From Devosia nanyangense (GTDB lineage: Bacteria > Pseudomonadota > Alphaproteobacteria > Rhizobiales > Devosiaceae), in assembly GCA_016213505.1 (NCBI GenBank), contig JACRAF010000049.1:2045-34044 (forward strand): a stretch of DNA of 32,000 bases. The letters run 5' to 3'. Position 1 is the stretch's first letter. Each line of letters starts with the position of its first letter. The notes under the pieces were generated by a model. It was not told the DNA's origin. It saw only the letters and a program-made list of their open reading frames with translations, and ran no database searches. Positions 6,875 through 29,942 of the stretch are shown piece after piece. The translations under genes and the position numbers were made by a program.

Positions 6875-6996
6875 GGGCCCCGCCGTCTCGGTCGCTACGG
6901 TCCGACCCTGTGCTGTGGATCGTCGATTTCGTCGTATTCTCGTATCTTGTCCGATACTGTGGCACCACGTAGACAACCCGAAGTGCGACTTCAAGC

Positions 6997-10784: not shown

Positions 10785-13700
10785 TTGGGCAAGATCTTCA
10801 TTTCACATTCGTCGGCCAACAACGCCGAGGCGTTGGCGATCCATGATTGGCTCGCCGCGCAGGGCTGGGGCGACGTCTTCCTCGATCTCGACCCGCGCCG
10901 CGGTCTGGTCGCCGGCGACCGCTGGCAGGCGGCGCTCAAGGCCGCCGCCGAGCAGTGCGAGCTGATCCTCATCCTGATCAGCCCGGATTGGGCGAAATCG
11001 AAATGGTGCCTCGCCGAGTTCCTGCTCGCCAAGCAGATGAACAAGCAGATCCTCGGCGTCCTGGTGAAGCCGACCCCGCTGGGCGACCTGCCGGTCGAAC
11101 TCACCGCCGAGTGGCAGCTGGTCGATCTCAGCGCCCCCAATCCCGGCTGGTCGGTCACCATTTCGCCGCCGCGCTTCGAGCCCGAAACGACGATCCAGTT
11201 CTCCGGCACCGGTCTCGCCCGGCTTTCGGCGGGCCTCCAGAAAGCCGGGCTCGATCCCGATAATTTCCTCTGGCCGCCGGCCTCCGACCCGCAGCGCGCG
11301 CCCTATCGCGGGCTGTTGCCGCTCGATGCCGACGACGCCGGCATCTTCTTCGGCCGCGACGGCGCCATCGTTCTGACCCTCGATGCGCTACGCGGCCTCC
11401 GCGCCGCCGCCGCGCCGCGCTTCACGACCATTCTGGGCGCCTCGGGCGCCGGCAAATCTTCGTTCCTCCGTGCCGGCCTCTTGCCACGACTCGATCGCGA
11501 CAGCCGGCATTTCTACGTCCTGCCGGTGATCCGCCCCGAGCGCGCCGCGCTCACCGGCGAGCACGGCTTTGCCGCCATGCTCGCGCTCGCCCTCAAGGCC
11601 CGCAACCTCACCCGCAACCGCGCCGATCTTCGCGATGCGGCCATCGCCGGCGCCGCCGCCGTTGCCCCGCTCCTCAAGCAGCTGGCGATCGCCGAGGATG
11701 CTGGCGACGGCGGCGCCGACGGGCCGCCCACCCTTGTCATCGCCATCGACCAGGCCGAGGAATTGCTGACCGCCGACAACGCCGAGGCCGGCCAGTTGCT
11801 GACGCTGCTCGCCGATCTGGGGCAGCGCGACGATCCGGCCGTCCTCGTCATCCTCACCGTCCGCTCCGACAGCTTCGATCAGCTCCAGGCGCGGCCCGAA
11901 CTGGCGCCGACCCAGCCGCATCATCTTGTCGATCTGCCGCCGGTGCCGTTCGGGTCGTTCGGCGACATCATCCGCGGCCCGGCCCGCCGGGTCACCGCCG
12001 CCGGGCGCAAGCTCACCCTCGACGAGACACTGGTCGATGCGCTGCTGAGCGACATCGAGAAGGGCGGCGCCAAGGATGCGCTGCCGCTGCTCGCCTTCAC
12101 GCTGGAACGGCTTTACAGGGACTACGGCGCGGACGGCGACCTGCAGCTTTCGGAATACGGGAAGCTCGGCCGTATCCGCGGCGCCATCGAAGCGGCGGTC
12201 GAGCAGGCCCTGGGCAAGGCCGACGCCAACCCCGCCATCCCGCGCGACCGCGCGGCGCGGCTGGCGCTGCTCCGCCGCGGCCTCATTCCCTGGCTCGCCG
12301 GCATCGACCCCGACACCGGCTCGCCGCGCCGCCGCGTCGCCCGCCTCGCCGAAGTGCCCGAGGAGGCCCGCCCCCTGATCGAACTCATGGTCGCCGAGCG
12401 CCTGCTCGCCACCGACATCGACAAGCAGACCGGCGAGCGCACCATCGAGCCGGCGCACGAGGCGCTGCTGCGCCAATGGGGCGCGCTCGACGGCTGGCTG
12501 GTCGAGGATTCCGCCGATCTCGGCCTCGTCGAGGCCCTCCGCCGCGCCGCCACCGACTGGGCCGCCAACGCCAACGCGGCCGAATACGTCGTCCACAAGG
12601 GGGCGCGGCTCGCCACCGCCGAGCAGCTGGCGGCCGATGACAAATTCGCCGCCTACCTCACCTCCGTCGACCGCGCCTATCTGAGCGCCGCCCGCGACGC
12701 CGAGAACGCCGCCGCGCGAAAAGCCCGGGCCGCCCGAACGCGGCTGACCATCGCGGCCGCCGTGGTGGGTGTGGTGCTGGTCGCCGGCGCCACGGCCGGA
12801 TACTTCATCTGGTCGGCGGGCGAAGGTGCAAAAGTCCTTGCCGCTGCCAATTTCGAGATCGCCCGTTCCGAGGCCGCCCTGCGCGCCGGCCAGCCTGAGG
12901 AGGCGGCGCAAGCCGCGCTTGCGGCCTATGACCTCTTGCCCTCAACCGCGACGCGCACCGCCGCGCTCACGGCAGCAATGGCCGTCCCGCCCAATGCCTC
13001 GATCATCTTCCCCGTTGCGGAGCGCATTGCCGACGCCGCTTTTCTCGATTCCGATCATCTGCTCGTGTTGAGCGCCCGGGGCGCGGTCACCACACTCGAT
13101 CTTGCTATGCGCAAAGCCACCGGGGGCACTGCGCTGTCCGCCTCGCCGCCTCCCATTGCGCTGTCGCCCGACGGAACGTTGGTGGTCCATGCCGACGCCA
13201 GCCTCACCGGCCTCGAAGGCAGCCTCGTGGCGGCCGCGCCGGTCGAAGAATTCGCGGCCAGGGCGGGGAGTGTCTCGGCCGGCCGCGGCGGCAAGGTGAT
13301 CGCCATGATCGGTCTGATCGGCGATGTCCTGGTCCGCGATTGCCGCTCGTTGCCCTGCATCGATCACCGCCTCGCCGAGGGCAGCGCCACCGCGCTCGCG
13401 CTCACCGCGGATGGTGCCCGGCTGGCGGTCGGCCGCGACACCGGTGAAGTTGCGTTCTACAGCGACTTCGCCGCCGCGCCCGTCGTGGTCCCGAGCGGGG
13501 ACGGCGGTGTCGTCTCGCTCGCCTGGTTCGCCGGGGCCGATCGCCTCGCCATCGGCACCGAGGGCAATTCGCTGCTGCTGCTCGATCCAGCGCAGCCCGC
13601 CGCATTGGCACGCATCGAGCTCACCGTTCATCCGGGCGTTGTCGCCGCTTCGCCGACGGCCCCGCTCATTGCCGTCAGTTGCGCCGGCCGCGACATCTGC

Positions 13701-14849
13701 ATCTATGGCGACGATGGCGGCCTGCGGCAGGAGTTGGCCGGCCACAACAATGCCATCGCCGCGATCCGCTGGAGCGCCGACGGAGCTTCGCTCGCCTCGG
13801 TCGCGCCCAACGATCCCATCCGCATCTGGACGCTCGCTCCCGACCGCGACATCGCCTTTGACCGCCGCGCCGGCAGCGACCCGCTCACCGCGCTGGCGGT
13901 CGACCGCGCGCGCGGCATCATCGCGGCCGGCGACAAGACTGGCGCGCTGACCCTTTGGTCCGGCGAGGCGCCCCCGCAGCACCTCGGCCCGCCCGATGGC
14001 GTCGACGCTCCCGTCACTTCGCTGGCATTCCTCTCCGATGGCCGCCTTGCAGCCGTGTATCAAAGCAAGGCGGTCGCCGTATGGTCGCTGGACAAGACCA
14101 CTCCCGACAAGCTGCTGACCCTCGACAACCTCAGCTTTTCGCGCGTCGCCGCGCTCACCGGCGACATCCGCGCCGCCGTGCCACTCTCCGACAAGACGAT
14201 CCTCGTCCTCTCCGGCGACGAGTTGCGCGAGACCCGCGTCGCCGCCGATTCCATGCCGCTCGACCAATGGGGGCTCGCCGCCGCGCCCGCCGCCAACACC
14301 GCCTTCGTCTCCTACTCCGACGGCACCATCCGCCGCCGCGATCTCGGCGCGGGCGGCGAGGGCACGATCGTCTTCGACGCAAAGGCTTCGATCTGCGGCG
14401 CCGCGCCCACCACCGACAACAATGGCGCCAAGAGCCTCGATGTCAGCGCCGACGGCAAATGGCTCGTCGCCACCCGCACCGATGCGCAGGTCATCGTCCA
14501 CAATCTCACCGATCCATTGAAGCCGATCTGCATCGCGCTGCCGGCGCCGGACAGCAAGACCGTCGCCTTCTCGCCCGATACGAGCAAACTCGCGATCCTC
14601 AGCGCCACCGACCGGCTGTTCGTCTTCGATCTGGCCCACCCGGACGATGCCATCATCCTCGGCGCCCCGGCGGTCCCCGACCATTCACCCGTCGCCGCCG
14701 CCGCCGGCAAATCGCGCACCACCTCGTGGCTGGCCTGGCTCGATGACAAGACCCTCGCGATTTCGACCATCGCCGGAACGGTCGAAACCATCGCCCTCGA
14801 TACCGACTCCTGGCGGGCTCGTGTGGACAGCCTGGTCTTCACCCAATAG
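10785..14849 (+). CDS. TIR domain / STAND-class P-loop NTPase / single TM helix / roughly 14 WD40-like beta-propeller blades (1354 aa)
   Basis: - TIR: KIFISHSS...SKWCLAEF, with the conserved Glu at aa 78 (11016-11018).
- Pre-NTPase signature: PYRGLLPLDADDAGIFFGRD (11301-11360).
- Walker A: GASGAGKSS (Lys224 at 11454-11456).
- Walker B: LVIAIDQAEEL (Asp322 at 11748-11750).
- TM helix: LTIAAAVVGVVLVAGATAGYFIW (12744-12812), preceded by RKARAARTR (positive-inside).
- Propeller: about 14 repeats of a 'hydrophobic-x-SPDG/ADG...h-h-h-D/S-L' blade pattern from about 13020 to 14846, including one near-canonical WD repeat, LAGHNNAIAAIRWSADGASLASVAPNDPIRIWTL (about 13734-13835).
- Start: TTG. It is the only start that retains the first TIR strand. 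Confidence 0.85.
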   Translation: MGKIFISHSSANNAEALAIHDWLAAQGWGDVFLDLDPRRGLVAGDRWQAALKAAAEQCELILILISPDWAKSKWCLAEFLLAKQMNKQILGVLVKPTPLGDLPVELTAEWQLVDLSAPNPGWSVTISPPRFEPETTIQFSGTGLARLSAGLQKAGLDPDNFLWPPASDPQRAPYRGLLPLDADDAGIFFGRDGAIVLTLDALRGLRAAAAPRFTTILGASGAGKSSFLRAGLLPRLDRDSRHFYVLPVIRPERAALTGEHGFAAMLALALKARNLTRNRADLRDAAIAGAAAVAPLLKQLAIAEDAGDGGADGPPTLVIAIDQAEELLTADNAEAGQLLTLLADLGQRDDPAVLVILTVRSDSFDQLQARPELAPTQPHHLVDLPPVPFGSFGDIIRGPARRVTAAGRKLTLDETLVDALLSDIEKGGAKDALPLLAFTLERLYRDYGADGDLQLSEYGKLGRIRGAIEAAVEQALGKADANPAIPRDRAARLALLRRGLIPWLAGIDPDTGSPRRRVARLAEVPEEARPLIELMVAERLLATDIDKQTGERTIEPAHEALLRQWGALDGWLVEDSADLGLVEALRRAATDWAANANAAEYVVHKGARLATAEQLAADDKFAAYLTSVDRAYLSAARDAENAAARKARAARTRLTIAAAVVGVVLVAGATAGYFIWSAGEGAKVLAAANFEIARSEAALRAGQPEEAAQAALAAYDLLPSTATRTAALTAAMAVPPNASIIFPVAERIADAAFLDSDHLLVLSARGAVTTLDLAMRKATGGTALSASPPPIALSPDGTLVVHADASLTGLEGSLVAAAPVEEFAARAGSVSAGRGGKVIAMIGLIGDVLVRDCRSLPCIDHRLAEGSATALALTADGARLAVGRDTGEVAFYSDFAAAPVVVPSGDGGVVSLAWFAGADRLAIGTEGNSLLLLDPAQPAALARIELTVHPGVVAASPTAPLIAVSCAGRDICIYGDDGGLRQELAGHNNAIAAIRWSADGASLASVAPNDPIRIWTLAPDRDIAFDRRAGSDPLTALAVDRARGIIAAGDKTGALTLWSGEAPPQHLGPPDGVDAPVTSLAFLSDGRLAAVYQSKAVAVWSLDKTTPDKLLTLDNLSFSRVAALTGDIRAAVPLSDKTILVLSGDELRETRVAADSMPLDQWGLAAAPAANTAFVSYSDGTIRRRDLGAGGEGTIVFDAKASICGAAPTTDNNGAKSLDVSADGKWLVATRTDAQVIVHNLTDPLKPICIALPAPDSKTVAFSPDTSKLAILSATDRLFVFDLAHPDDAIILGAPAVPDHSPVAAAAGKSRTTSWLAWLDDKTLAISTIAGTVETIALDTDSWRARVDSLVFTQ

Positions 14850-14873: not shown

Positions 14874-16625
14874 GTGCAGCATCGGGGCAAATCAGTGCGT
14901 TCGGCGGGCCGCCTGCTGCTTGCGCTGGCGCTGTCGACCAGCCTCGTTGCGCCCATCGCGCCGGCTTTCGCCGGCGCCATCGAGCGCCTTGCCCCCGCCC
15001 CGTCTGCTCCGGCCGCGCCCCCCGGCACCGAGCCGGCAGCCTTCCGCACCTGGGTGCAGCTCGTGTGGAATCCCGTGACCCGCGCCCTCGAAAGGCTGCG
15101 TTTTACCGCCTGGGATCCCGTCCCCTCGCTCGGGCTCGAGCTCAGCTGGCTGCCCGACGATCCTGCCGCCGGCCAGAGCGGGCCGCTCGAAGGCCGCGGC
15201 ACCCTCTCGTTCCGCAAGCCCGGCGCCCCGGCCTACGACGCATCCGCCACCGTGGCGCAATATCGCGGTACGCTCAGGGCGGGCCGTGCCGACGGCTTTG
15301 GTGAATTCCTCGACCAGTCCGGCTTTGCCTATGCCGGCGCCTGGCGCGACGGCCTGATGGAGGGCGAGGGCCGGCTCACCCTCGCCAATGGCGATCAGTA
15401 TGTCGGCGGCTTCCGCGCCGGCCGCAGCGACGGGCGCGGCGTCTTCACCGACGCCAGCGGCCGCATCTATGCGGGCAGCTTCACCGCGGGGCTGCCCGAT
15501 CCCGAAGCGATCCTCGCCCAGGATTCGCCCGAGGGTCTGCGCATCGGCGTCGTCGCCGAGCGCCGCCCGCACAATTACGAGCTCGGCATCGACCCCTTGA
15601 GCTATACCTCGGCCAGCACCGGCGAGACCCTCGATATCCTGCCCGACGATCAGCGCCTGCTCGACGTCTGGCACGGCGCGGCGCCGATCGGCATGACCGA
15701 CGAGGAGATCCACGCCTTCAACAACGGCTCGACCACCGCCAATTTCCTCGGTCCCTACGAGCGCTTCGATCCCTTGTCGCTGGTGTTCGAACTCGAGAAC
15801 GCCTTGACCGACACCGTCTCGGTCGTCGGCGGCTTCCTAGATGTCAGCGACAGCGTGCGCCAGCCCGAGCCGGCCATGCAGGTCCGCCCGTTCCCGCGTG
15901 ATCCCTGTTCGGGCACCATCGATTTCCTGCCGCTGTTCTTCATCGACAATTTCGGCTGGACCGCCGCCGACAACGCTGCGCTCGCCATCACCGCCGGCTC
16001 GGTCGATGGACGCCCCGAGGGCACGCCGATCGAGGTGCCGCTCGGCGCCATCGCCGACAGCATGAAGATCGACCTCACCGCGCAACTGACGGCGCTCGGC
16101 CTCGATACCGAGTACGTGTCGCACGAGCGGCTCCGCTGTTCCGATCCCAACGACCAGCGGCTCTGCCTCGCCGAGCTGAAACAATCCGGCCATTTCGGCC
16201 AGCTGAGCAACTTCCTCTCGCTCGACTACACCACCGTCACCGTTGCCGTGATGGGCACCCTCGATTACGATTGGACCGTCTCCGGCGGCACGGTGAGCCA
16301 CAAGAGCTCGCCGTTCTCGGTGATCCTCCCCATCGCCACGGTCGCCAGCGACGCCGAATGCGGCGAGGGCGGCGAGATCATCCCGGTCAACCACGATCCG
16401 TTCCAGCTCCGTCTCGACGAGCAGAACTACAAGATCGCCATTCCATTCGCCGGTGACGTCACCCCCGGCTTCACCTCGCGCTGGCGCATCGAACTGTCGG
16501 CGCCCGAAACCTCCGAGCACGATTTCCGCCTGGTGCTGGTCCTCACCGACGGCAGCCAGGTCGTCTCACGTCCGGTGCACCTCACCTACTTCATGCCCCC
16601 CAAGCGTGAAACGCTGGCGCATTGA
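14874..16625 (+). CDS. Secreted MORN-repeat protein with a C-terminal domain of about 380 aa and unknown function
   Basis: GTG start 24 bp after the TIR-STAND stop, preceded by GGGGAGGGG. The signal peptide is RLLLALALSTSLVAPIAPAFA|GA. There are four tandem MORN-like repeats (YRGTLRAGRADGFGEF, YAGAWRDGLMEGEGRL, YVGGFRAGRSDGRGVF, YAGSFTAGLPD) at about 15261-15500. I do not recognise the remainder, which contains 4 Cys. Confidence 0.75.
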   Translation: MQHRGKSVRSAGRLLLALALSTSLVAPIAPAFAGAIERLAPAPSAPAAPPGTEPAAFRTWVQLVWNPVTRALERLRFTAWDPVPSLGLELSWLPDDPAAGQSGPLEGRGTLSFRKPGAPAYDASATVAQYRGTLRAGRADGFGEFLDQSGFAYAGAWRDGLMEGEGRLTLANGDQYVGGFRAGRSDGRGVFTDASGRIYAGSFTAGLPDPEAILAQDSPEGLRIGVVAERRPHNYELGIDPLSYTSASTGETLDILPDDQRLLDVWHGAAPIGMTDEEIHAFNNGSTTANFLGPYERFDPLSLVFELENALTDTVSVVGGFLDVSDSVRQPEPAMQVRPFPRDPCSGTIDFLPLFFIDNFGWTAADNAALAITAGSVDGRPEGTPIEVPLGAIADSMKIDLTAQLTALGLDTEYVSHERLRCSDPNDQRLCLAELKQSGHFGQLSNFLSLDYTTVTVAVMGTLDYDWTVSGGTVSHKSSPFSVILPIATVASDAECGEGGEIIPVNHDPFQLRLDEQNYKIAIPFAGDVTPGFTSRWRIELSAPETSEHDFRLVLVLTDGSQVVSRPVHLTYFMPPKRETLAH

Positions 16626-16638
16626 GACTGCGCACCCA

Positions 16639-18324
16639 TCACCCCGGCTTCGACAGCTCGAACAAATTGGCGATCGGGATCAGCCGCGCCGCGATCGTCC
16701 CCTGCTTGAACACCCGCATTTCGAGCAGCGTTCCCGAGCCGCGTGGGGCGCTCTGGTCGAACAGGAAATTGCCCAGAGAATAGAGCATCTGCGCCTGCCC
16801 GCCGGCGAACGGCGCGATCGCCGCCGAGGCCTGGTGCGAATGGGCGCCCACGATCAGCGCCACTCCGCAGCGGACGAGGCGTTCGGCGATGGCGCGTTCC
16901 TTGTCGCCGGCGCTGCTCGTATACTCCGTCCCCCAGTGCACGAAGGCGATCAGCGGCGGCGCCGCCGTCAGCCCGCACACCCAATCGAGATCATCCGGAT
17001 CGCCGATCGCATCGCCGACGAACTTGCCGGAAACGAAGTTCAGCGCCAGCAGCCGGAACGCCCCGAAATCGGTCACCGTGCCGTGCTGCATCGGCGCCAC
17101 CCCGAGCCCCGTGAGCAGTTTCACCGTTTCCACGCGCCCCTCCGCCCCGAGGTCATTGGCGTGGTTGTTGGCAAGGCTCGCCGCTTTGACATTGAGCGCC
17201 GCCAGCACCGGCGCCGCATCGTCCGTCACCATAACGTGGGTCGAGAAATCAACCCCTGTCACCGGCCCATCGAGCAGCACGCCCTCGAGATTGACGATCA
17301 GCGGCGTCCGCCGCGTCGCCGCCAGGACCGTGTCGCGGATCATCGTCCACGCTGCCGGGTCGCGCAGCGCCGGCAGGAAATACCGGCCGAGCAGCACGTC
17401 GCCGCCGAAGATCATCCGCGTCTGGCCGGGATAGTCGAACACCGTTCCATCCGCCGCATCGCGGACGAAGGCCGTCACCACATAGCTCGTGGTCGAGCCC
17501 GGCCCGGTGCCGTACTCGACCGAATTGCCGTTGGCGAGCACCACCGGGTGCGCGTCGAACACCTCGCGCTGCAGCGCCAGCTGGATGAACTGAGCGGCTT
17601 TGGAATCCATATGCTCCGGCTGGAGCAGCGGCGCCACCTGCGCCGGATCGCCCGTGGCGATCATCGCCAGCGTCTCCTGGTCGCGCGCCATCGCCTCGGG
17701 CATGGGCCGGTAGTGCGAATAGTCAGTCGATTGCACCACCAGCGTATCGGGGCCGATCAGCGGCTTCAGCGCCTCGGTCATTGCCCGCCAGTCGGCCTCG
17801 GTGGCGTTGACCGAGCCGAGCAGCGGGATCACCGTCGCGTTCGGGAAGAAGTGCTTGATGAACGGCGCTTCCGCCATCACCCCGTGCTCGGTGGCGAGGG
17901 TCGGCAGCACCTCGACCAGGTCCGACCGCACGGCGAGGGCGTTCACCCCCGCGGTGTCCGACGCCACCGTGCCGAACACCGATTTGAGGTTCTCTCGTGT
18001 CGTCCCGAAGGCCTTGCTCACCTTGTGGAAGTGGTCGGGCGAAACGAGGAGGATCGTCCGGTAGTGCCCCGCCGACGCCGCCCAGAAGCCGCGGGCGATG
18101 AGGTCGGCGGCGAGCAGATGATGCGGCACGCTGATCCCGGTAACGCCCGCCGGCGGGGCGAAAGCCGGCGTCTCTTTGGCGATCGCGGCGAGGATCGGCG
18201 CCGGGTCCTGCGCCGGCAAGTACGGATTGTCGGCCGCGTGCAGCGTCCCGCCGGACGGGCCCAGCCACAATCCGGCCAGCACCAGCCACACCGCCGCCTT
18301 TGCCCGGCCCGCAACCCCTGTCAC
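16639..18324 (-). CDS. Secreted fusion protein: Memo-like (AmmeMemoRadiSam system protein B family) domain plus CapA/PGA_cap metallophosphatase-like domain
   Basis: The N-terminal half has GISVPHHLLA, LLVSPDHF and QSTDYSHY (Memo/AmmeMemoRadiSam-B pattern). The C-terminal half has IFGGDVLLGR, VNLEGV, LANNHANDLG, FVHWGTEY and VGAHSH (CapA-type pattern). I chose the GTG at 18324, preceded by GGGAG 6 nt upstream, which yields the signal peptide (M)TGVAGRAKAAVWLVLAGLWLGPSGGTLHA|AD. The track ATG at 18429 would overlap the divergent gene's ATG head-to-head. Confidence 0.75.
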   Translation of the reverse strand: MTGVAGRAKAAVWLVLAGLWLGPSGGTLHAADNPYLPAQDPAPILAAIAKETPAFAPPAGVTGISVPHHLLAADLIARGFWAASAGHYRTILLVSPDHFHKVSKAFGTTRENLKSVFGTVASDTAGVNALAVRSDLVEVLPTLATEHGVMAEAPFIKHFFPNATVIPLLGSVNATEADWRAMTEALKPLIGPDTLVVQSTDYSHYRPMPEAMARDQETLAMIATGDPAQVAPLLQPEHMDSKAAQFIQLALQREVFDAHPVVLANGNSVEYGTGPGSTTSYVVTAFVRDAADGTVFDYPGQTRMIFGGDVLLGRYFLPALRDPAAWTMIRDTVLAATRRTPLIVNLEGVLLDGPVTGVDFSTHVMVTDDAAPVLAALNVKAASLANNHANDLGAEGRVETVKLLTGLGVAPMQHGTVTDFGAFRLLALNFVSGKFVGDAIGDPDDLDWVCGLTAAPPLIAFVHWGTEYTSSAGDKERAIAERLVRCGVALIVGAHSHQASAAIAPFAGGQAQMLYSLGNFLFDQSAPRGSGTLLEMRVFKQGTIAARLIPIANLFELSKPG

Positions 18325-18427
18325 CAATCGCTCCCGGCCTCGTCTGTCCCGGAGCGTGGTCCCCAGGATTTCACTTGTCGCGCCAGCATGCCATGTTGCG
18401 CCCCGATTGTGGGAAATCTCCGCCGCC

Positions 18428-20467
18428 ATGAACCCCCGCCGCCTTGCCCTCTATCTCGCCCTTCTGGTCGTTCTGGGGCTGATCGGCTTCGGCCTCGCGC
18501 TCTGGGGCCTGTTCGGCTGCGCCCCGCCGCCGCTGCCCGGCGATGAGCTCTGGACCTGGCGGCGAAATCTTGGTGAGGCGCTGGGTCTCCTCGTCCGCCT
18601 CGGCAGCCAATCGTGCTTCACCGCCGATCCGGGTGGCGCTCTCGCGCTCTGGCTGGGCAGCCGCACCGTCGCCATCCTCGCCGCCATCCTCGCGCTGATC
18701 GTGCTGTGGGAGAGCGTCGGGCGCGAACTGAGGCTCGCCTGGTTCCGCGCGCGCGGCGGCCATTTGGTCCTCGCCGGCACGGCTGACGATCTCGCCGGCC
18801 TCGCCCGGCAGCACGGCCGCTTCGCCGGCACGGTGTTTCTGGCGCCCGATCGCGGCGCCGCCGTCGACATCGCCCGCCACCGCCCGTTCGCGGAAATCGC
18901 CATGATCGACGCCAAACGCCTGCCGCTTCAGCTTGCCCGCTTCGGCGCAAACAAGGCGACGCTGCTTGCCGCCACCACGCCGAGCGATCTCGCCAATGTC
19001 GCACTCGCCGAAGCGGGCCTCGCGACACCCGGCAGCGGCGAGCTGCTGGTCCGGCTGGAACAACACTCCGTGCGCAGCTTTTCCAGTCATCGCCTGCGCA
19101 TCCGCGCCGCTGACCGGGGCCGGCCGCTGGCCATCGTCTCGCTGACCCAGTTGCAGACCCGCCGCGGCCTCGCCGCTGCAATGGCCGGCCGCTATACGCT
19201 CGATGGAGCGCCGCGCGTCCATATCGCGCTCTGCGGCAGCGGGCGCGGGCTCGAGGCGGCGAGCTTCGAGATCGCCCGCCAGGGTTTTGGCCTCGATACC
19301 GAAAAGCCGCTGCTCTCGATCCTGCGCACCGGCGCCGGCGATTTCGCCCCCGGCGCCGTCCACCGGCTCGAATCCTCCGGCGTCGCCGAAATCGAGATGG
19401 CCGACGTGCTCGCCGCCTCCGCCGATGGTCTCGATCGCGCCATCGCGGCGGCCGTCGAAGACCATCCGCCGTTGCGCGCCGTCCACTGCATGGGCGAGAC
19501 GGCCGGTGAGGCCGAGGCCCTGGCCCAGCGCTGGGAGGAGGTGCTGCTGGCCCTCGGCCAGCCCGTGCCGCCGATCGTCGCCTACGCCGCCGAGGATCGC
19601 CCGCTCGGCTCGACCGGCATGATCCGCGTCGCCACCGCGCACGATCTGGCCGAAGCCCGCGAGGCCGCCCGCCTGATGGACCAGCGCGCCCGCGCCGTGC
19701 ACCAGCTCTTCCTCGACGCCCAGCGTCTCGCACGCGGCGACAAGTTTGGCAGCGCCCCCGCCGAGGTCGATTGGGAGCGCCTGCCCGAGAGTTTTCAGAA
19801 CGACAACCGCAACGTCGCCGACCAGATGGATTTTAAGCTCGCCACCATCTTCATGCTGGCCCGTCCGGGCGCGGGCAGTGTGGCGCCGACGCCCGACGAC
19901 GCCGAGCAACTGGCCGAACTCGCCCATGCCCGCTGGTGGGCGGCCAAGGCGCTGAGCGGCTGGCGCTTCGGCCCCGTGCGCGACGACAAAAAGATGCTGC
20001 ACCCCGACATGCTGCCCTACGACCAGCTCTCCGAGCCGGTCCGCCAGAAGGACCGCGACGAAGTGGCGAGCCTCGCGGCCATGGCCGGCCTCGCCGGCGA
20101 GGCGCTGCTGCGCGAGCGCCGCATCGGCCTGCCGCGCCCGCTCGGGACCGCGGCGCTGACGCGTTTCGTCGACGATCTGCGGGCGACGCCCAAGCCTTTC
20201 GTCCCGGTCGCCGTCTTATCGCTCGATGACGCCGCGATGGTGCGGCTCGCCCAGGCCCTGATCGGCGCCGGCATCGCCATCGAGGCGGTGCTCGGCCGCT
20301 CGACCGGCGATCTGCGCGGCGATCCCGGCGTCGCGCCGGAGCTGGCCTCCGTGCTGCGCCGCGCCTGGCGCATCCACGTCGCCGGCGACGACGATGCCCG
20401 CCCGGCGCTCGCCGAACGCGCGACGGCGTGCGCCAACGAGAACGGAGCGATCGATGCGCTGGTCTAG
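18428..20467 (+). CDS. Membrane-anchored (2 TM) protein with two Rossmann/TrkA-N-like modules and a RyR (ryanodine-receptor repeat) domain, 679 aa
   Basis: TM1 is LALYLALLVVLGLIGFGLALWGLF and TM2 is ALALWLGSRTVAILAAILALIVLW. Rossmann-like modules are HLVLAGTADDLAGLA and HIALCGSGRGLEAASFEIARQG. The RyR-domain signature is WERLPESFQNDNRNVADQMDFKL...LAELAHARWWAAKALSGWRFGPVRDDKKMLHPDMLPYDQLSEPVRQKDRDEV (about 19740-20080). ATG at 18428. Confidence 0.75.
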   Translation: MNPRRLALYLALLVVLGLIGFGLALWGLFGCAPPPLPGDELWTWRRNLGEALGLLVRLGSQSCFTADPGGALALWLGSRTVAILAAILALIVLWESVGRELRLAWFRARGGHLVLAGTADDLAGLARQHGRFAGTVFLAPDRGAAVDIARHRPFAEIAMIDAKRLPLQLARFGANKATLLAATTPSDLANVALAEAGLATPGSGELLVRLEQHSVRSFSSHRLRIRAADRGRPLAIVSLTQLQTRRGLAAAMAGRYTLDGAPRVHIALCGSGRGLEAASFEIARQGFGLDTEKPLLSILRTGAGDFAPGAVHRLESSGVAEIEMADVLAASADGLDRAIAAAVEDHPPLRAVHCMGETAGEAEALAQRWEEVLLALGQPVPPIVAYAAEDRPLGSTGMIRVATAHDLAEAREAARLMDQRARAVHQLFLDAQRLARGDKFGSAPAEVDWERLPESFQNDNRNVADQMDFKLATIFMLARPGAGSVAPTPDDAEQLAELAHARWWAAKALSGWRFGPVRDDKKMLHPDMLPYDQLSEPVRQKDRDEVASLAAMAGLAGEALLRERRIGLPRPLGTAALTRFVDDLRATPKPFVPVAVLSLDDAAMVRLAQALIGAGIAIEAVLGRSTGDLRGDPGVAPELASVLRRAWRIHVAGDDDARPALAERATACANENGAIDALV

Positions 20468-22196
20468 CTTCATTGGGCCCCTCGCGACCCTCGCCGCCTG
20501 CCTCGTGGCGGGCGCCGCCCTCGCCATCACGCCGGTGACCGATCTCGAACGCTCCGCCACCCGGCAGGCGATCGCCGCCCAACTCGGCCCGAGCCATTCC
20601 TATGCGCTCCTCATCGGCATCTCGGACTTCGACGATCCGGCCTGGCGCGACCTCGCCGGCGTCGCCCCCGAGATCGGCAAGGTCGGCGCGGCGCTGACCA
20701 ATCAGGGCTTCACCATCGTCCCCGAGAGCCATGTCGGCCGCCTCGACCACGCCGGCCTCAAGACCGCCATCGAGCATTTCTTTTCGACCTACGGCGCCAA
20801 TGCCGAGGACCGCCTCGTCGTCTATATCGCGACGCACGGCTTCGCCGATCCTTCGATCCCCAATGCCGACGGCTACCTCATCGCGTCGGACGCCGCGGCG
20901 CCCGCCGGCGGTAAAGTCAAGAACGGCTATTCGGTCGACGAGCTCTCCGCCGCGCTGACCTCGATCGCTGCCCAGCACGTCTTCCTGTTCTTTGATTCGT
21001 GCTTTTCGGGCGCCATGCTGCCCGAGCCCACCCGCGCCGCCGACACCATCCTTGCAGGCAAACCCGAGCTCGCCTTGAGCAAGGAGACCGCGGCGTGGAC
21101 GCTGAGCCTCCTCGCCCACAATGCCCGCCTCGTCCTCACCGCCGGCAACGCCAGCCAGAGCGTGCCCGATATCGACAATCCGTTCTCGGCCGCCGTGGTC
21201 GATGCGCTGAGCGGCGCTGCCGATGCCGATGGCGACGGGCTGACGCTGGGCACCGAGATCGCCCAGTTCGTGCGCGGCCGCGTCGCCCGCGCCACCCGCC
21301 TCGCCGGCGCCGCCAACGACCCGGTGTTCGCTGTGCTGCCCAAGCTCGTCGCGCCCCTCGAGCCGCGCCCCGACGTGCCGAACCCCGATCGCGTCGACTA
21401 CGCGCTGCAGGGCGATTTCATCTTCCTCACTCCCGGCGGCCCGAAGGCCTCGGCCGAAGCGGGGATCAGCGAGCAGGAGGCGCTGCTCGCGGACCGCGAG
21501 GCGCGCCTGATCGACGGCCAGTTCACCGCCTGCCTCGATTGCCCGACCATGGTGAAGCTCCCCGGCACCGAGCCGCAGCTGGCCCTCGCCAGCACCGAAA
21601 TCACTTACGCCCAGTGGGACGCCTGCTTCCGCGAAAGCGCCTGCCACCGCTACCTGCCCGACGACGGCTTCGGCCGCGGCGACCGCCCGGCCGGCAACGT
21701 CACCTGGCTCGATGCGCTCGAATACGTCACCTGGCTCGGCACCAAGCCGACCAAGGACCAGCCGTGTGTCGGCTATCGCCTGCCCACCGAGGCCGAGTGG
21801 AACGCCGCCGCCCTCTACGGCACCGCCGGTCCCGTCACCTGGGCTGAGGCGGTCGCCGACACCTCGCCGGTCTGCTGGGGCTGTGGTGCCGGCGAGGACG
21901 GCACGGCCGCCGTGCGCACCGCCTCGCTGCCGGCCAACGCTGCGGGGCTCTACGACATGGTCGGCAATCTCTGGGAGTGGGTGGACGGCGCCGGCGCCGC
22001 CGCGTGCGACCTGACCGCCATCCGCCAGTCCGGCGCCTGCGTCCCCGGCCGCGTCATGGGCGGCTCCTTCGCCACCCGCGCCGATGCTCTCGCCACCATC
22101 GGCGACGGCGGCCTTGCCCCCCGCACCGGCAACGACCGCCCGTGGTCGTCCCCCACCATCGGCATGCGCGTGGCGTGCGAGGTGACGGGCGGCTGA
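20454..22196 (+). CDS. Exported caspase-like (peptidase C14) protease fused to an FGE-sulfatase-like (SUMF1/FGS) domain, 580 aa
   Basis: The ATG at 20454 is preceded by GGAG and overlaps the upstream stop by 14 nt. The N-terminal signal is MRWSSFIGPLATLAACLVAGAALA, with a possible lipobox LAAC. The caspase dyad is YIATHG (His128, 20835-20837) and FFDSCFSG (Cys183, 21000-21002). FGE-sulfatase motifs are CPTMVKLPG, EITYAQWDAC, PAGNVTWLDALEYVTWL, YRLPTEAEWNAAA, GLYDMVGNLWEWV, VMGGSF and IGMRVA. The post-GGS Cys pair of true FGEs is absent. Confidence 0.85.
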   Translation: MRWSSFIGPLATLAACLVAGAALAITPVTDLERSATRQAIAAQLGPSHSYALLIGISDFDDPAWRDLAGVAPEIGKVGAALTNQGFTIVPESHVGRLDHAGLKTAIEHFFSTYGANAEDRLVVYIATHGFADPSIPNADGYLIASDAAAPAGGKVKNGYSVDELSAALTSIAAQHVFLFFDSCFSGAMLPEPTRAADTILAGKPELALSKETAAWTLSLLAHNARLVLTAGNASQSVPDIDNPFSAAVVDALSGAADADGDGLTLGTEIAQFVRGRVARATRLAGAANDPVFAVLPKLVAPLEPRPDVPNPDRVDYALQGDFIFLTPGGPKASAEAGISEQEALLADREARLIDGQFTACLDCPTMVKLPGTEPQLALASTEITYAQWDACFRESACHRYLPDDGFGRGDRPAGNVTWLDALEYVTWLGTKPTKDQPCVGYRLPTEAEWNAAALYGTAGPVTWAEAVADTSPVCWGCGAGEDGTAAVRTASLPANAAGLYDMVGNLWEWVDGAGAAACDLTAIRQSGACVPGRVMGGSFATRADALATIGDGGLAPRTGNDRPWSSPTIGMRVACEVTGG

Positions 22197-22208
22197 CGCC
22201 GGCCGCCG

Positions 22209-23435
22209 TCAGGGAGGCGGCGCGTTCTGGATGATGTCCACCAACCTCGCCTGCGCCTCGTCGATGGACATGTTCGTGTCGGCGAAGAATTGCGTCTCGA
22301 GATCGCGGATTTGCCTCAGCGAGTCGCCGTCGAGCAGCTCGTCGCGCGACGGGTATGTGGCGCCGTTCTGGATAAGCGCGACGCCCCTTTGCACGCAGAC
22401 ATCGGCCCCGTCGCCGCCACCGAGCCGAGCCGGCAGCGTGCCGCGCCGCGCGTTGAACTCCCGCTGCACATCGTCCCGCACCAGAACGGCGGCGAGCGCC
22501 TCCTGGGCGTGGACGATCTCGGGGTCCTGGCTGACAGGAAACGCCAGCGTTTCGGCGACGACGTGCAGCGCCGGGTTCTGCCCGAGGCCCGGCAGGCAGT
22601 CGAAATCGACTCCCGGCGTCTTGCCGGCCGCTTCGAACCTCGCCAGGGCCCAATCGCCCGTCACATTGGCCGCGGCCTGGCCCTGAACGACGAGGTCGAC
22701 CGCTTCGTCCCATCGCGCGATCCTCTGGCCCGGTTCGACGAGCCGGCGTGCAACGTCGAATTGCGTCCACACATCGCGGTAGTCCGGCCCGCCGGCGACG
22801 TTGGTGTCCCGGCCGCGATAGACGCTCAGGTAGTTGGCCGTGCCGGCGACCGCGACCTCGATGCCGTCGAGCAGGTTACCGACCGGCCAGCCCTCCGCGA
22901 CCGCGAGCGGAAGCTTGCCGCTGGCCCTCACCGAGTCCACGCTCGCCACGAACTCGGTCCAACTCTGCGGAACGTTCATCCCGGCCTGCTGATAGACGTC
23001 GCGATTGAGCCACATCCATTGTTCCGTCCGCAGGCTCACCGGCACGCACAGGATGTGACCATCGACGGTGCACCCATCTAGCGCCGACGCCTCGAGGAAA
23101 TTCGCCCAGCTACCCTGGCTCGCAAGGTCGCGCAGGTCCCTGAGCAAACCGCTGGCGGCGAGCGTCGCGATGGTTGCCGGCGACAGCAGTGCTGCACACG
23201 GCGCGTTTCCACTGGCAATTTGGCGAATGACCTGCGTCTGCAGCTCGTTCGCATCCACCCGGACGCCCTCCCAGTGGTCACCACCAGCATTGAAGGCCTC
23301 CGCGAGGACCGCCTCCCCCGCGACTTCCTCCGGCGACGTCCACGAATGGACGACCTCGCAATCGGCCGCCGAAGCCGGCGACGAAAGTACAACAATCGAC
23401 AAGGCGAAAACGACACCGATGAAGACCGACCGCAT
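22209..23435 (-). CDS. Periplasmic carbohydrate ABC-transporter substrate-binding protein (SBP family 1). No cognate permease or ATPase genes are nearby.
   Basis: The ATG at 23435 is preceded by GGGGAGGG. The signal peptide is MRSVFIGVVFALSIVVLSSPASA|AD. The mature start (EVVHSWTSPEE...) and overall pattern resemble sugar-binding SBPs. The track start at 23627 adds an implausible leader. Confidence 0.7.
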   Translation of the reverse strand: MRSVFIGVVFALSIVVLSSPASAADCEVVHSWTSPEEVAGEAVLAEAFNAGGDHWEGVRVDANELQTQVIRQIASGNAPCAALLSPATIATLAASGLLRDLRDLASQGSWANFLEASALDGCTVDGHILCVPVSLRTEQWMWLNRDVYQQAGMNVPQSWTEFVASVDSVRASGKLPLAVAEGWPVGNLLDGIEVAVAGTANYLSVYRGRDTNVAGGPDYRDVWTQFDVARRLVEPGQRIARWDEAVDLVVQGQAAANVTGDWALARFEAAGKTPGVDFDCLPGLGQNPALHVVAETLAFPVSQDPEIVHAQEALAAVLVRDDVQREFNARRGTLPARLGGGDGADVCVQRGVALIQNGATYPSRDELLDGDSLRQIRDLETQFFADTNMSIDEAQARLVDIIQNAPPP

Positions 23436-26977: not shown

Positions 26978-29650
26978 ATGAGCGTCGAGACTTTTCGCCG
27001 GACCCTCGCAGCGGCGTTCCGGCCGACCAATCTGATCGTGGCGATCGGCGTCGTGGTCGTGCTCGGCTCGGCGATTTTCGCCGACGTCCAGAACCGGACC
27101 GTCGAAGAGCAGCAGCTGCGCGGCTCGGTGAGCGGCACGGTCAGCGTGCTCAGGGCCCGGCTCGAAGGCAACATCAACGGCAATATGCAGCTGCTGCGCG
27201 GCCTCGTGGGCGCGCTGAGCGTCGACCCCAACATGTCGCAGCCGCGCTTTTCCGCCATCGCCCGCTCGCTGTTTGCCGACCATTCGCAGGTCCGCGACGT
27301 CGCCGGCGCCCCCGGGCTGAAAGTGGCGCTGCTCTATCCAGTGCAGGGCAACGAGAAGCTGCTGGGCGCCGCCTATGGAGCGGTCGACGCCCAGCGCACC
27401 GCGATCCTCCAGCAGCGCGACGTACGCGGCGTGGTTCTCGCCGGGCCGGTCGATCTGGCCAAAGGCGGGCGTGGTTTCGTCGGCCGCTTTCCGGTTTTCG
27501 TCGATGGTCCGGCGATCAAGCCCTATTTCTGGGGCGTCGCGACCGCCGTCGTCGATGCCGAAAAGCTCTACCGCGACAGCGGCCTGCTCGATCCCGGTCT
27601 CGGTGTCGACGTCGCCATCCGCGGTCCCGACGGCAGCGGCGCCGCGGGCGGCATCTTCTTCGGCTCGGCCGACCTGCTCGACGACCGCCCGATCGTCGCC
27701 GACGTGACGCTGCCCACCGGCTCGTGGCAGATTCTCGCCCGGCCCAGTGTCGGCTGGGTCGCCGCGCTGCCCAATCCGCTGGGCTTTCGCCTCCTGATCT
27801 CGCTCGCCGGTGCGCTGGTGCTGGTCCCGCTGTTCGTCGCCCGCCGCCTCGTCAACGAGCGGCAGCGCCACATCGGCGCGCTGCGCGAACGCGAGCATCA
27901 GCTCGATGTGCTCTCGCGCCGGCTGGCCCTGGCGCTCGACACCTCCGAGGTCGGCGTGTGGGAATACAACATCATCACCGACCAGCTGGTCTGGGACGAT
28001 CGCATGAACGAGCTCTACGGCCTGCCCCGGGACGGCCAGGAGCGCAATTACGGCCACTGGAAGGCTGCGTTGCACCCCGATGATCTCGACCGTGCCGAAG
28101 CGGATTTCACCGCCGCAGTGACGGCCCGCGGCCGCTACGTCTCCGAATACCGTCTGCGCCTGCCCGACGGCCAGGACCGCATCATCCGCGCCATCGGCGC
28201 CTGCTACCGCGATGCCGACGGCTCGGTCCGCATCGTCGGCGTCAACTGGGACGTCACCGCCGACGTCGCCATCCGCGAAGATCTCGAGCACGCCAAGGCG
28301 CTGACCGAGGCCCGCAACGCCGAACTCGAGGCGGCGACCGAGCGGATCGAGCACAATTCGCTGCACGACGCGCTGACCAAGCTGCCCAACCGCCGCTTCC
28401 TCGACAAATTCCTCGAAGAACGCGCCGCGGCCTGCCACGCGGACGGCTCGGGCATTGCGCTGCTCCACATCGATCTCGACCGCTTCAAGCACATCAACGA
28501 CACGCTCGGCCATGCCGCCGGCGACGCCATGCTGGTGCACGCCGCCAATGTGCTGCGTGCCAATGTCCGCGCCGAGGATTTCGTCGCCCGCATCGGCGGC
28601 GACGAGTTCGTCGTGGTCAGCGCGCTGCGCCGCGGCCGCCGCGACCTGACCCGGTTGGCGAGCCGCATCATCGCCGACATGCGCGAGCCGCTGCCCTATC
28701 TGGGCCACGAGTGCCGCTGCGGCGTTTCCGTGGGCGTCGCCTATCAGCGCGGCGACAAGGTCGACGACAAGCGCCTGCTGATCGACGCCGATATCGCGCT
28801 CTATCGCGCCAAGCGCCGCGGCCGCAATCGCCACGAATTCTTCACCGAGGCGCTGCAGGCCGAGATCGTCTCGGCCAAGCACATGGCCGACGACATCCTG
28901 AGCGGCATCGAGCAGGGCCAGTTCGTCGCCTGGTACCAGCCGCAGTTCGACGCCAAGACCCACGCCATCAGCGGCGTCGAGGCGCTGGCCCGCTGGGAGC
29001 ATCCGGTCCGCGGCGTGGTCGCGCCCGATCTCTTCCTGCCCATCGCCGAGGAGCTCAACGTCGTCGCCACCATCGACCGCATGATCCTCGAACAGACGCT
29101 GGGCTGGATGCGCCGCTGGCGCGCCGAGGGGCTGGTCGTGCCGCGCGCCTCGGTCAACGTCTCGGGCCGCAGGCTGCGCGACGAGGACCTCATCAAGAGC
29201 CTCAAAAGGCTCGACATCGAACCCGGCACGATTTCCTTCGAGCTGGTCGAATCCATCTATCTCGACGAGAGCGACGACACCGTCGCCTTCAACATCGACC
29301 ACATCCGCGAACTCGGCATCGACATCGAGATCGACGATTTCGGCACCGGCTATGCCTCGATCGTGAGCCTCTTGAAGCTCCAGCCGCGGCGGCTCAAGAT
29401 CGACCGCCAGCTGGTGATGCCGCTGCTCGGCTCCGAGAGCCAGCGCCGGCTCATCGCCTCGATCGTCGACATCGGCCATTCGCTCGGCATTTCGGTGGTC
29501 GCCGAGGGCGTCGAAACCCACGAGCACGCCCGGCTTCTCACTGAACTGGACTGCGACACGCTGCAGGGCTACGCCTTCGCCAAGCCGCTGAGCCCCGCCG
29601 GCATCGAGCGCTTCATCGCCAATTGGCAGAAGAAGCAGCAGGCGGCGTAG
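26978..29650 (+). CDS. Membrane c-di-GMP turnover protein: periplasmic CHASE-type sensor, TM, PAS, GGDEF and EAL domains
   Basis: TM1 is LIVAIGVVVVLGSAIFA, followed by a periplasmic domain of about 230 aa and TM2 LLISLAGALVLVPLFVA. A PAS/PAC region follows (VGVWEYNIITDQLVWDDRMNELYG...HPDD...). The GGDEF domain has an I-site (RAEDFVARIGGDEF). The EAL domain has EALARW, DDFGTGYAS, KIDRQLV, EGVET and QGYAFAKP. Confidence 0.9.
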   Translation: MSVETFRRTLAAAFRPTNLIVAIGVVVVLGSAIFADVQNRTVEEQQLRGSVSGTVSVLRARLEGNINGNMQLLRGLVGALSVDPNMSQPRFSAIARSLFADHSQVRDVAGAPGLKVALLYPVQGNEKLLGAAYGAVDAQRTAILQQRDVRGVVLAGPVDLAKGGRGFVGRFPVFVDGPAIKPYFWGVATAVVDAEKLYRDSGLLDPGLGVDVAIRGPDGSGAAGGIFFGSADLLDDRPIVADVTLPTGSWQILARPSVGWVAALPNPLGFRLLISLAGALVLVPLFVARRLVNERQRHIGALREREHQLDVLSRRLALALDTSEVGVWEYNIITDQLVWDDRMNELYGLPRDGQERNYGHWKAALHPDDLDRAEADFTAAVTARGRYVSEYRLRLPDGQDRIIRAIGACYRDADGSVRIVGVNWDVTADVAIREDLEHAKALTEARNAELEAATERIEHNSLHDALTKLPNRRFLDKFLEERAAACHADGSGIALLHIDLDRFKHINDTLGHAAGDAMLVHAANVLRANVRAEDFVARIGGDEFVVVSALRRGRRDLTRLASRIIADMREPLPYLGHECRCGVSVGVAYQRGDKVDDKRLLIDADIALYRAKRRGRNRHEFFTEALQAEIVSAKHMADDILSGIEQGQFVAWYQPQFDAKTHAISGVEALARWEHPVRGVVAPDLFLPIAEELNVVATIDRMILEQTLGWMRRWRAEGLVVPRASVNVSGRRLRDEDLIKSLKRLDIEPGTISFELVESIYLDESDDTVAFNIDHIRELGIDIEIDDFGTGYASIVSLLKLQPRRLKIDRQLVMPLLGSESQRRLIASIVDIGHSLGISVVAEGVETHEHARLLTELDCDTLQGYAFAKPLSPAGIERFIANWQKKQQAA

Positions 29651-29689: not shown

Positions 29690-29925
29690 CGGTGGGGAGC
29701 AGTCGGCATCGAGCGCGCCCTCGCCCCCCTCCCCAGCTCTGCTACGGACCTGAAGGTCCTAGCGTCGCTACCCTCCCCGCGCCGGGGGAGGGTGCCCCGA
29801 CTGCCCACGGCAGCGAGTCTCTCAGTCAGCACCCCACCTCCCCCCTTGCGGGGGAGGAAGCGAGATAGGACTTAGCGTCAGCTAGGTCCGTGATCGAGCA
29901 GGCGGGGGGAGCAGTCGGCACGGAG
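29690..29925. repeat. Composite palindromic intergenic repeat, copy B (same two unit types as copy A, inverted orientation, unit order swapped)
   Basis: Unit X (about 29697-29806) matches the reverse complement of about 504-605: CGCCCCCCTCCC(C/T)AGCTCTGCTACGGACC..GGTCCTAGCGTCGCTACCCTCCCCGCG. Unit Y (about 29821-29923) matches the reverse complement of about 593-696, and 29830-29876 is identical to the reverse complement of 640-686. It lies between convergent genes. Confidence 0.85.
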
Positions 29926-29942
29926 CCTGATAGAACTACGTC

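Follow-up and report, generated by a model that had tools for sequence, protein, structure and literature searches.

What does a bacterial caspase do once it has been sent out of the cytoplasm, and with which partner would it work? The question is raised by a 32,000-nucleotide stretch of the Devosia nanyangense genome (contig JACRAF010000049.1, positions 2,045 to 34,044; hereafter the window), in which one gene encodes a caspase-type protease joined to a domain with the fold of the formylglycine-generating enzymes (FGE), and the gene directly in front of it encodes a membrane protein with RCK and RyR domains. The reading that we favour, and that we hold to be somewhat probable, is that the two form a trans-envelope protease-plus-channel module, in which an exported C14 protease with a non-FGE lectin-fold domain is coupled to the RCK/RyR membrane protein by a mechanism that we infer. 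The features of the two genes, in window coordinates, are these:

20454..22196, plus strand: gene of the exported caspase/FGE-like protein, 580 aa plus stop, backed by a ribosome-binding site (RBS), the GC content at third codon positions (GC3) and ~95 orthologues
20454..20525, plus strand: predicted signal peptide, aa 1-24, with a predicted signal peptidase I (SPase I) cut after A22-L23-A24 and before I25
20499-20501, plus strand: codon of the lipobox residue Cys16, which is not conserved (7/60 orthologues)
20586..21353, plus strand: C14 caspase-fold protease domain, ~aa 45-300, with the codons of His128 at 20835-20837 and of Cys183 at 21000-21002
21519..22193, plus strand: PvdO/FGE-like domain of C-type-lectin fold, ~aa 356-580, with ten conserved Cys and with Thr541 at 22074-22076 and Leu546 at 22089-22091
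18428..20467, plus strand: upstream partner gene, 679 aa, directly 5' of the caspase gene in 11/11 orthologous loci
Layout of the partner: transmembrane helix (TM) 1, a re-entrant helix and TM2 at aa 1-109; tandem RCK/Rossmann domains at ~113-403; an RyR/R12 domain at ~454-555; and a C-terminal alpha/beta domain

The ORF (open reading frame) at 20454-22196 is genuine, at the coordinates that the original prediction had given it. The GC content of the window is high (about 0.65-0.72), and the GC3 of this ORF is 0.90, compared with 0.64 for a long overlapping antisense ORF. The sequence GGAG at 20444-20447 forms an RBS 6 nt 5' of the ATG at 20454. An upstream start at ATG 20394 was rejected: no RBS precedes it, its overlap with the upstream gene would come to 74 nt, and the orthologues begin at an MRW-type N-terminus. 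A search of a large protein collection returned ~95 orthologues of the same length and of 40-93% identity, mostly from Devosia and other Hyphomicrobiales metagenome-assembled genomes, and most of them bear the NCBI name 'SUMF1/EgtB/PvdO family nonheme iron enzyme'. More distant matches are caspase-(PEGA)-FGE proteins of Desulfobacterota, Magnetococcales and others. A profile search of genome contigs with the family alignment yielded, among the matches listed, only distant FGE-domain loci (≤30% identity) and no orthologues. Conserved residues of the protein were counted in an alignment of 60 orthologous sequences, to which all counts out of 60 refer.

Several searches identify the N-terminal half as a caspase fold. 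Pfam places Peptidase_C14 (PF00656) at aa 50-195 (E = 3.3e-7; 30.7 bits, with a cutoff of 21.4). The best NCBIfam match is 'caspase, EACC1-associated type' (caspase_w_EACC1, NF047832), which is covered over model positions 1-209 of 211 with an E-value of 3.7e-19, at a score of 69 bits that lies below the curated cutoff of 140. A Foldseek search of the PDB with this half of the AlphaFold model (mean predicted local distance difference test, pLDDT, of 84.6 for the protein) returned MALT1 paracaspase and Arabidopsis metacaspase 9 with E-values of about 1e-8. When a sub-profile of the caspase domain was compared with the PDB, only weak matches were obtained (E = 0.3-1.4), so that Pfam, NCBIfam and Foldseek are the basis of the fold assignment. 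The intact His/Cys dyad that had been proposed from the sequence is borne out: H128 (YIATHG) and C183 (DSCFSG) are invariant in 60/60 orthologues, C183 is the sole conserved Cys of the protease half, and in the AlphaFold model H128 ends the strand 120-126 and C183 the strand 175-183. The loop that follows Cys183 (aa 185-196) is of low confidence in this model. The weak sub-profile alignment lays the ATHG motif with H128 over the catalytic SHG histidine of an ancestral caspase-3/6/7. Judged by these features, the domain is a C14 (orthocaspase-like) cysteine protease with an intact dyad, and it is probably active.

A linker of ~55 residues leads to the C-terminal domain, whose FGE-sulfatase fold, already seen in the original prediction, is confirmed by a Pfam match (PF03781, aa 374-543, E = 7.4e-22) and by the structures that Foldseek returned from the PDB for this half, namely PvdO, CarF, TvpA, FGE (human and bacterial structures) and PorK. 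In a profile search PvdO scored best (E = 1e-17), followed by PorK/GldK; the motif CxxCPxMV is common to the domain and PvdO. Ten Cys residues are conserved in this half of the alignment (360, 363, 391, 397, 438, 474, 477, 518, 529 and 575), and the closest relatives in structure and sequence (PvdO, PorK and CarF) are extracytoplasmic. A sub-profile of the C-terminal 84 residues aligned over its whole length with wild-type human FGE; a short single sequence searched against the PDB had left the GGS region unaligned. In this profile alignment the invariant Thr541 takes the place of Cys336 of human FGE, and Leu546 that of Cys341. The family consensus at the site reads GGSYATRAEAL...PRT.N..PWSSPT.G.RVAC, and the 60 orthologues have no Cys column between residues 529 and 575. 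The absence of the catalytic pair, which had been read from the single sequence, thus stands on proper alignment, and because both catalytic (copper-binding) cysteines of FGE are missing, the domain cannot be a formylglycine-generating enzyme. A fold that is present without these cysteines makes a binding role more likely than formylglycine generation, in line with the ligand-binding module that had been suggested; the idea that FGE-sulfatase (FGS) domains can act as binders without being enzymes is an established one in the literature.

The protein also carries the marks of an exported one. Its N-terminus reads MRWSSFIGPLATLAACLVAGAALA↓ITP, where the arrow marks the predicted cut, and on inspection each of the 60 orthologues opens with an n-region of basic character, followed by 12-20 hydrophobic residues and a small-x-small site. 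A crude script for n-region, h-region and small-x-small site is passed by 58 of the 60, and the cleavage-site consensus, ...AxA↓I(T/V)P, is conserved. Of the distant caspase-(PEGA)-FGE relatives found here, most likewise have a signal peptide or a lipobox at the N-terminus. A periplasmic location is further supported by the disulfide-type Cys pattern, by the CxxCPxMV motif held in common with PvdO, and by the ranking of PvdO and then PorK/GldK as best profile matches. The export that had been proposed is therefore well in keeping with the family alignment, and most likely the caspase protein is Sec-exported by an SPase I-type signal and soluble in the periplasm.

Which protein would such a protease work with? 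Eleven orthologous loci were compared (the window, L001, L002, L004, L006, L008, L089, L090, L091, L092 and L093), and in all eleven a full-length RyR homologue (33-66% identity) lies directly 5' of the caspase gene, with overlapping stop and start. In these loci the coupling of the caspase gene to the RCK/RyR membrane-protein gene is obligate; the distant caspase-FGE loci L009, L010, L012 and L018 have no RyR gene. Among the database matches of the two proteins, many more RyR and caspase orthologues come from contigs of identical length, which suggests that they too lie together on one contig. In the window the caspase start overlaps the end of the RyR gene by 14 nt (RyR stop TAG at 20465-20467), and the two genes form a translationally coupled operon with the caspase gene distal. 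A scan of 18000-22600 for promoters and terminators gave nothing above shuffled expectation.

The partner of the window is 100% identical to HY834_16025. Its AlphaFold model (pLDDT of 90, predicted template modelling score, pTM, of 0.84) runs from a helix (3-31) over a short periplasmic segment, a second helix (40-57), a loop and a third helix (68-109) to two Rossmann-type domains, a long helix, the RyR domain and a final alpha/beta domain. The top Foldseek matches are to the RCK-gated channel GsuK, including full-length chains, followed by TrkA/MthK rings and RyR R12 domains; TrkA_N is detected in 9 of 34 partner orthologues, and neither NCBIfam nor PADLOC gave a match for the protein. The TVGYG selectivity filter is absent, the corresponding segment being SC63FTADPGG. 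The periplasmic segment (C31-APPPLPGDELW...C63) is strongly conserved, with C31, L36, P37, G38, W42 and C63 invariant. The RyR domain (PF02026, 42 bits, with a cutoff of 27.4) matches the animal R12 repeats in profile searches with E-values of 1e-20 to 1e-25. Four of its residues, H500, W503, H525 and D542, are invariant in 34/34 orthologues, and their spacing, H-x2-W-x21-H-x16-D, is identical to that of H75, W78, H100 and D117 in the phage protein RyDEP, as an ungapped mapping to PDB entry 35tm confirms. In RyDEP these residues contact and cleave the 2'/3' cyclic ADP-ribose (2'/3'cADPR) made by Thoeris TIR proteins (PMC13232231). From fold and residue conservation we take the partner to be an inner-membrane, channel-like protein with an RyR domain that keeps the cADPR-contact residues of RyDEP, and a host-side membrane protein of this kind appears to be undescribed.

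The mechanism that we favour would make one trans-envelope unit of the two proteins. The cytoplasmic RCK/RyR part of the membrane protein would read an adenine-nucleotide signal, which in Devosia and a second lineage could plausibly come from an adjoining TIR-nSTAND1-WD40 protein. On the other side of the membrane, the lectin-like domain of the protease may dock on an envelope ligand or on the conserved periplasmic loop of its partner. Periplasmic proteolysis would then gate the channel, by analogy with the caspase-licensed EACC1 pores; alternatively, the channel protein could release the proteolysis, so that the signal may flow in either direction.

The genes in front of the pair supply the context for this proposal:

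10785..14849, plus strand: TIR-nSTAND1-WD40 protein, 1354 aa, cytoplasmic, with the TIR motif SKWCLAEF
14874..16625, plus strand: MORN-repeat protein with a signal peptide of its own, a neighbour only in Devosia
16639..18327, minus strand: Memo/PGA_cap protein that begins with a hydrophobic, signal-like segment and whose gene diverges from the RyR gene

The plus-strand ORF at 16453-18546, which has 697 aa and no domains, is spurious; the gene that actually occupies this stretch is the minus-strand Memo/PGA_cap gene. As this gene runs on the minus strand, the RyR and caspase genes form a bicistronic unit of their own, divergent from Memo. The Memo part of the fusion is AmmeMemoRadiSam-B-like, and the gene is kept in all five Devosia loci. 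The N-terminus of the MORN protein is a signal peptide (...LLLALALSTSLVAPIAPAFA↓GA), which assigns it to the same compartment as the caspase. The original prediction had looked for substrates among these neighbours, the MORN and propeller proteins; the constant partner is instead the upstream RyR/RCK protein. The MORN protein is a poorly chosen candidate because a minus-strand gene parts its gene from the caspase gene and the two co-occur only in Devosia. The WD40 propeller is unsuited because it belongs to the cytoplasmic TIR-nSTAND1 protein, out of reach of a periplasmic protease.

TIR and nSTAND1-WD40 lie next to the pair in 7/11 loci. They are fused in the window, L001 and L091-L093. In L008 and L090 a separate TIR gene accompanies nSTAND1-WD40 on the opposite strand, and the proteins are only 25-27% identical to that of the window; split form, orientation and low identity indicate an independent TIR-STAND arrangement. 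The TIR domain of the window (10785-11050) matches the ThsB and Thoeris III ThcB4 models weakly, and its SKWCLAEF is a WCxxE-type motif, which holds the catalytic Glu of TIR NADases. The five Devosia loci, at 58-72% identity, hold the whole five-gene cluster at one chromosomal position, and the window genes that flank the cluster are housekeeping genes.

Other lineages place other genes beside the pair. In L002 (5104-7845) and L004 (5158-7749), genes of an extracytoplasmic-function (ECF) sigma factor, an anti-sigma factor and an exported S8 peptidase stand directly 5' of it on the same strand, which suggests that expression of the pair is under ECF control in these lineages. In L006 the segment 5009-11427 looks like a periplasmic protease network: it encodes a trypsin that has a signal peptide, a serpin whose signal is of the twin-arginine (Tat) type RRxFL (RRAFL), and a second pair, a paralogous RyR gene (TrkA_N+RyR) followed by the gene of a 714-aa caspase with a signal peptide. 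In L090 the gene 5' of the RyR gene (6166-7977) gives a weak SLOG (YAcAr) match and SLATT domain matches, an architecture of nucleotide-sensing pore effectors. An N-terminal 'LRLGVTGHR' is common to this gene and to the one directly 5' of the RyR gene in L008 (7238-7981).

Two further observations concern the surroundings of the cluster. A CHASE-PAS-GGDEF-EAL signalling protein (window 26978-29650) is encoded downstream, in synteny, in all Devosia loci. Clusters of intergenic units that resemble repetitive extragenic palindromic (REP) sequences are found at 517-693 and 29721-29929, one at each window end and ~29 kb apart; each unit, of about 31-54 nt, holds a CCTCCCCC-GCAA-GGGGGGAGG hairpin, and the two clusters are in inverted orientation and 88-98% complementary. 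They look like dispersed repetitive extragenic elements and not like island boundaries, and housekeeping genes are among those between them.

Other explanations can be given for single parts of the caspase protein. The lipobox to which the original prediction had pointed is indeed present in the window protein, where L13-A14-A15-C16 fits the pattern, as it does in six close relatives, and SPase II might cut before Cys16 and leave the caspase lipid-anchored to the membrane. We hold this to be improbable even for the window protein, in which the h-region preceding Cys16 is short and bears a single positive charge. As a family trait the lipobox fails: Cys16 occurs in only 7/60 orthologues while the downstream AxA↓I(T/V)P site is conserved throughout, and for this reason the family is predicted to be secreted and not lipid-anchored. 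That the C-terminal domain is a PvdO/EgtB/SUMF1-type enzyme, which oxidatively modifies a periplasmic substrate for the caspase domain to process, would agree with the NCBI name of the orthologues and with PvdO as the best match in profile and fold. It has, however, no FGE catalytic Cys pair; its score for the PvdO equivalog NF051459 is 41.6 bits against a cutoff of 500, the EgtB, OvoA, SenA and GldK equivalog models also stay far below their cutoffs, with marginal matches for EgtB, OvoA and SenA, and no pyoverdine or sulfatase genes were found among the window ORFs scanned. Such an enzyme is hardly a probable one here. A domain diversified by a diversity-generating retroelement (DGR) to bind variable ligands, like TvpA, comes to mind because TvpA is the top PDB match in the single-sequence search and FGS domains of conflict systems are often DGR targets. 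Yet the window has no repeat of the template/variable (TR/VR) type, the C-terminal segment is highly conserved among the orthologues and not hypervariable, and the window ORFs scanned include no reverse transcriptase; we rejected this candidate on the missing repeat and the conserved C-terminus, and regard its chance as negligible. Nor do we think that the caspase stays in the cytoplasm as the executioner of a TIR-signalling system (type IV Thoeris-like), with an N-terminal hydrophobic stretch that is no export signal. A TIR gene adjoins, the caspase is closest to the EACC1-associated type, which is cytoplasmic, and a precedent for a TIR protein that activates a caspase is reported (Rousset et al. 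2025). Against this stand the signal peptide of 58/60 orthologues, the ten conserved Cys of a lectin domain whose relatives are periplasmic, and the lack of any nucleotide-sensor domain recognisable by Pfam or NCBIfam in the caspase protein, and the idea is very improbable.

A further explanation concerns the pair as a whole. It may be a housekeeping module for envelope maintenance or stress, a periplasmic protease with an ion channel or regulator under ECF-sigma control, which has no part in repelling invaders and stands next to TIR-STAND genes by coincidence. Although we consider this unlikely, it is a serious rival, because the Devosia cluster is syntenic and vertically inherited and no PADLOC system was found; divergent Devosia keep the cluster at the same chromosomal position, its flanks carry housekeeping genes, and the ECF sigma, anti-sigma and S8 genes precede the pair in L002 and L004. 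It does not readily account for the recurrence of TIR and nSTAND1-WD40 in split form, in the other orientation and at only 25-27% identity, for the SLOG-SLATT gene of L090, or for the cADPR-contact residues that the RyR domain retains. The trans-envelope module that we favour draws on the same conflict context, that is, TIR and nSTAND1-WD40 adjacent in two arrangements and the (weak) SLOG-SLATT gene of L090. Several points weigh against it. Export is predicted from sequence features and their conservation, the channel assignment from fold with the TVGYG motif absent, and physical contact between the two proteins is putative. A cytoplasmic nucleotide signal cannot directly reach a periplasmic protease. 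The Devosia cluster looks like a vertically inherited core locus and not like a mobile defence island; PADLOC reported no defence system, only a weak generic caspase match and TIR matches. Finally, 4/11 loci lack TIR/STAND and have ECF sigma/anti-sigma/S8 or trypsin/serpin genes instead, so that the TIR link is not obligatory. A bolder version of the trans-envelope module, which we put forward as doubtful, would make the pair a new TIR-signalling effector: a host RyR receptor for an ADP-ribose (ADPR)-type signal from the TIR-nSTAND1-WD40 protein would gate a cation channel coupled across the inner membrane to the periplasmic caspase, by licensing from outside or by inside-out release. A trans-envelope switch of this sort, for immunity or cell death, would for the first time show a host making use of the RyR domain by which phages (RyDEP) destroy the same signals.

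Parts of this arrangement have counterparts among known systems. A survey of prokaryotic metacaspases found FGE-sulfatase to be the fifth most common fused domain (33/671) and transmembrane helices or signal peptides in about 15% of the proteins (Asplund-Samuelsson et al. 2012, PMC3501461). The combination of an exported caspase with an FGE-like domain, which the original prediction had thought unusual, is therefore not so: both the fusions and the signal-peptide caspases were catalogued in 2012, and most of the distant relatives found here are exported too. The published proteins likewise have the caspase at the N-terminus and the FGE-sulfatase domain at the C-terminus, with an N-terminal hydrophobic signal in many members, but they are mostly cyanobacterial or from Bacteroidota, some have a substituted dyad, and no RyR partner is described for them, whereas in the present alphaproteobacterial clade the dyad is invariant and ten Cys are conserved. 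The nearest logic to that of the RyR-caspase pair is that of the EACC1-caspase two-gene system, in which a membrane pore-former encoded 5' is licensed by a caspase with a variable sensor domain encoded 3' (Kaur et al. 2020, PMC7159879; Evans et al. 2025, PMC12642450). Alike are the 5' membrane-protein gene, the 3' gene for an N-terminal caspase and a variable C-terminal domain of sensor type, the occasional association with nSTAND1, and the EACC1-associated type as best NCBIfam match of the caspase domain. The analogy has its limits: the defining EACC1 gene is missing and the NF047832 model cutoff is not reached (69 bits versus 140), the 5' gene encodes a 679-aa 2TM/RCK/RyR protein in place of the single-TM EACC1, and the caspase is predicted to be exported whereas EACC1 caspases are cytoplasmic.

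PvdO (PDB code 5HHA), which acts in pyoverdine maturation, resembles the C-terminal domain as a periplasmic protein with CxxCPxMV and without the FGE catalytic Cys, but it lacks a protease domain and is encoded in a pyoverdine cluster, and the equivalog score of the present domain is far below the cutoff. The TM region and both RCK domains of the partner match the fold of GsuK, one of the RCK-gated 2TM cation channels like MthK; unlike these, the partner has no TVGYG filter and carries the RyR and extra C-terminal domains. It has the ligand residues of RyDEP at identical spacing and resembles the animal RyR R12 domain, but RyDEP is a small soluble phage protein, and the partner is a membrane protein known here from sequence and model. 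In type IV Thoeris a TIR signal is reported to activate a caspase-like protease (Rousset et al. 2025), and a TIR-domain protein is here too encoded next to a protease of the caspase family. The present caspase, by comparison, is predicted to be periplasmic and has no evident nucleotide sensor, the TIR domain is fused to nSTAND1-WD40, and an RyR-domain membrane protein would stand between TIR and caspase in the logic of the system. The locus falls outside type IV Thoeris, given the conserved signal peptide of the caspase and a TIR gene next to the pair in only 7/11 loci.

What is new in the locus is thus the pairing. The caspase plus FGE-sulfatase architecture and bacterial caspases with signal peptides are already documented (PMC3501461). 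The fixed association of an exported caspase-lectin protein with an RyR channel-like protein, often beside a TIR-STAND gene, appears to be undescribed; our literature searches for an RyR and caspase pairing, or for bacterial RyR/TrkA proteins, brought up no earlier account. Discussion of caspase homologues in bacteria has mostly dealt with executioners in the cytoplasm; exported ones are numerous, none of them with a known role. The locus gives one family of exported caspases a concrete partner, a putative nucleotide-sensing, channel-like membrane protein, and offers a possible upstream signal generator in the TIR-STAND protein. If the TIR link is true, TIR/ADPR signalling, ion-channel effectors and periplasmic proteolysis would be connected, and this would explain why RyR domains, whose binding of cADPR was recently shown for phage counter-defence, occur so widely in the membrane proteins of bacteria. 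Should the TIR link prove false, Devosia and related Hyphomicrobiales still have in this pair a conserved envelope module, which now goes by the mistaken annotation 'nonheme iron enzyme'.

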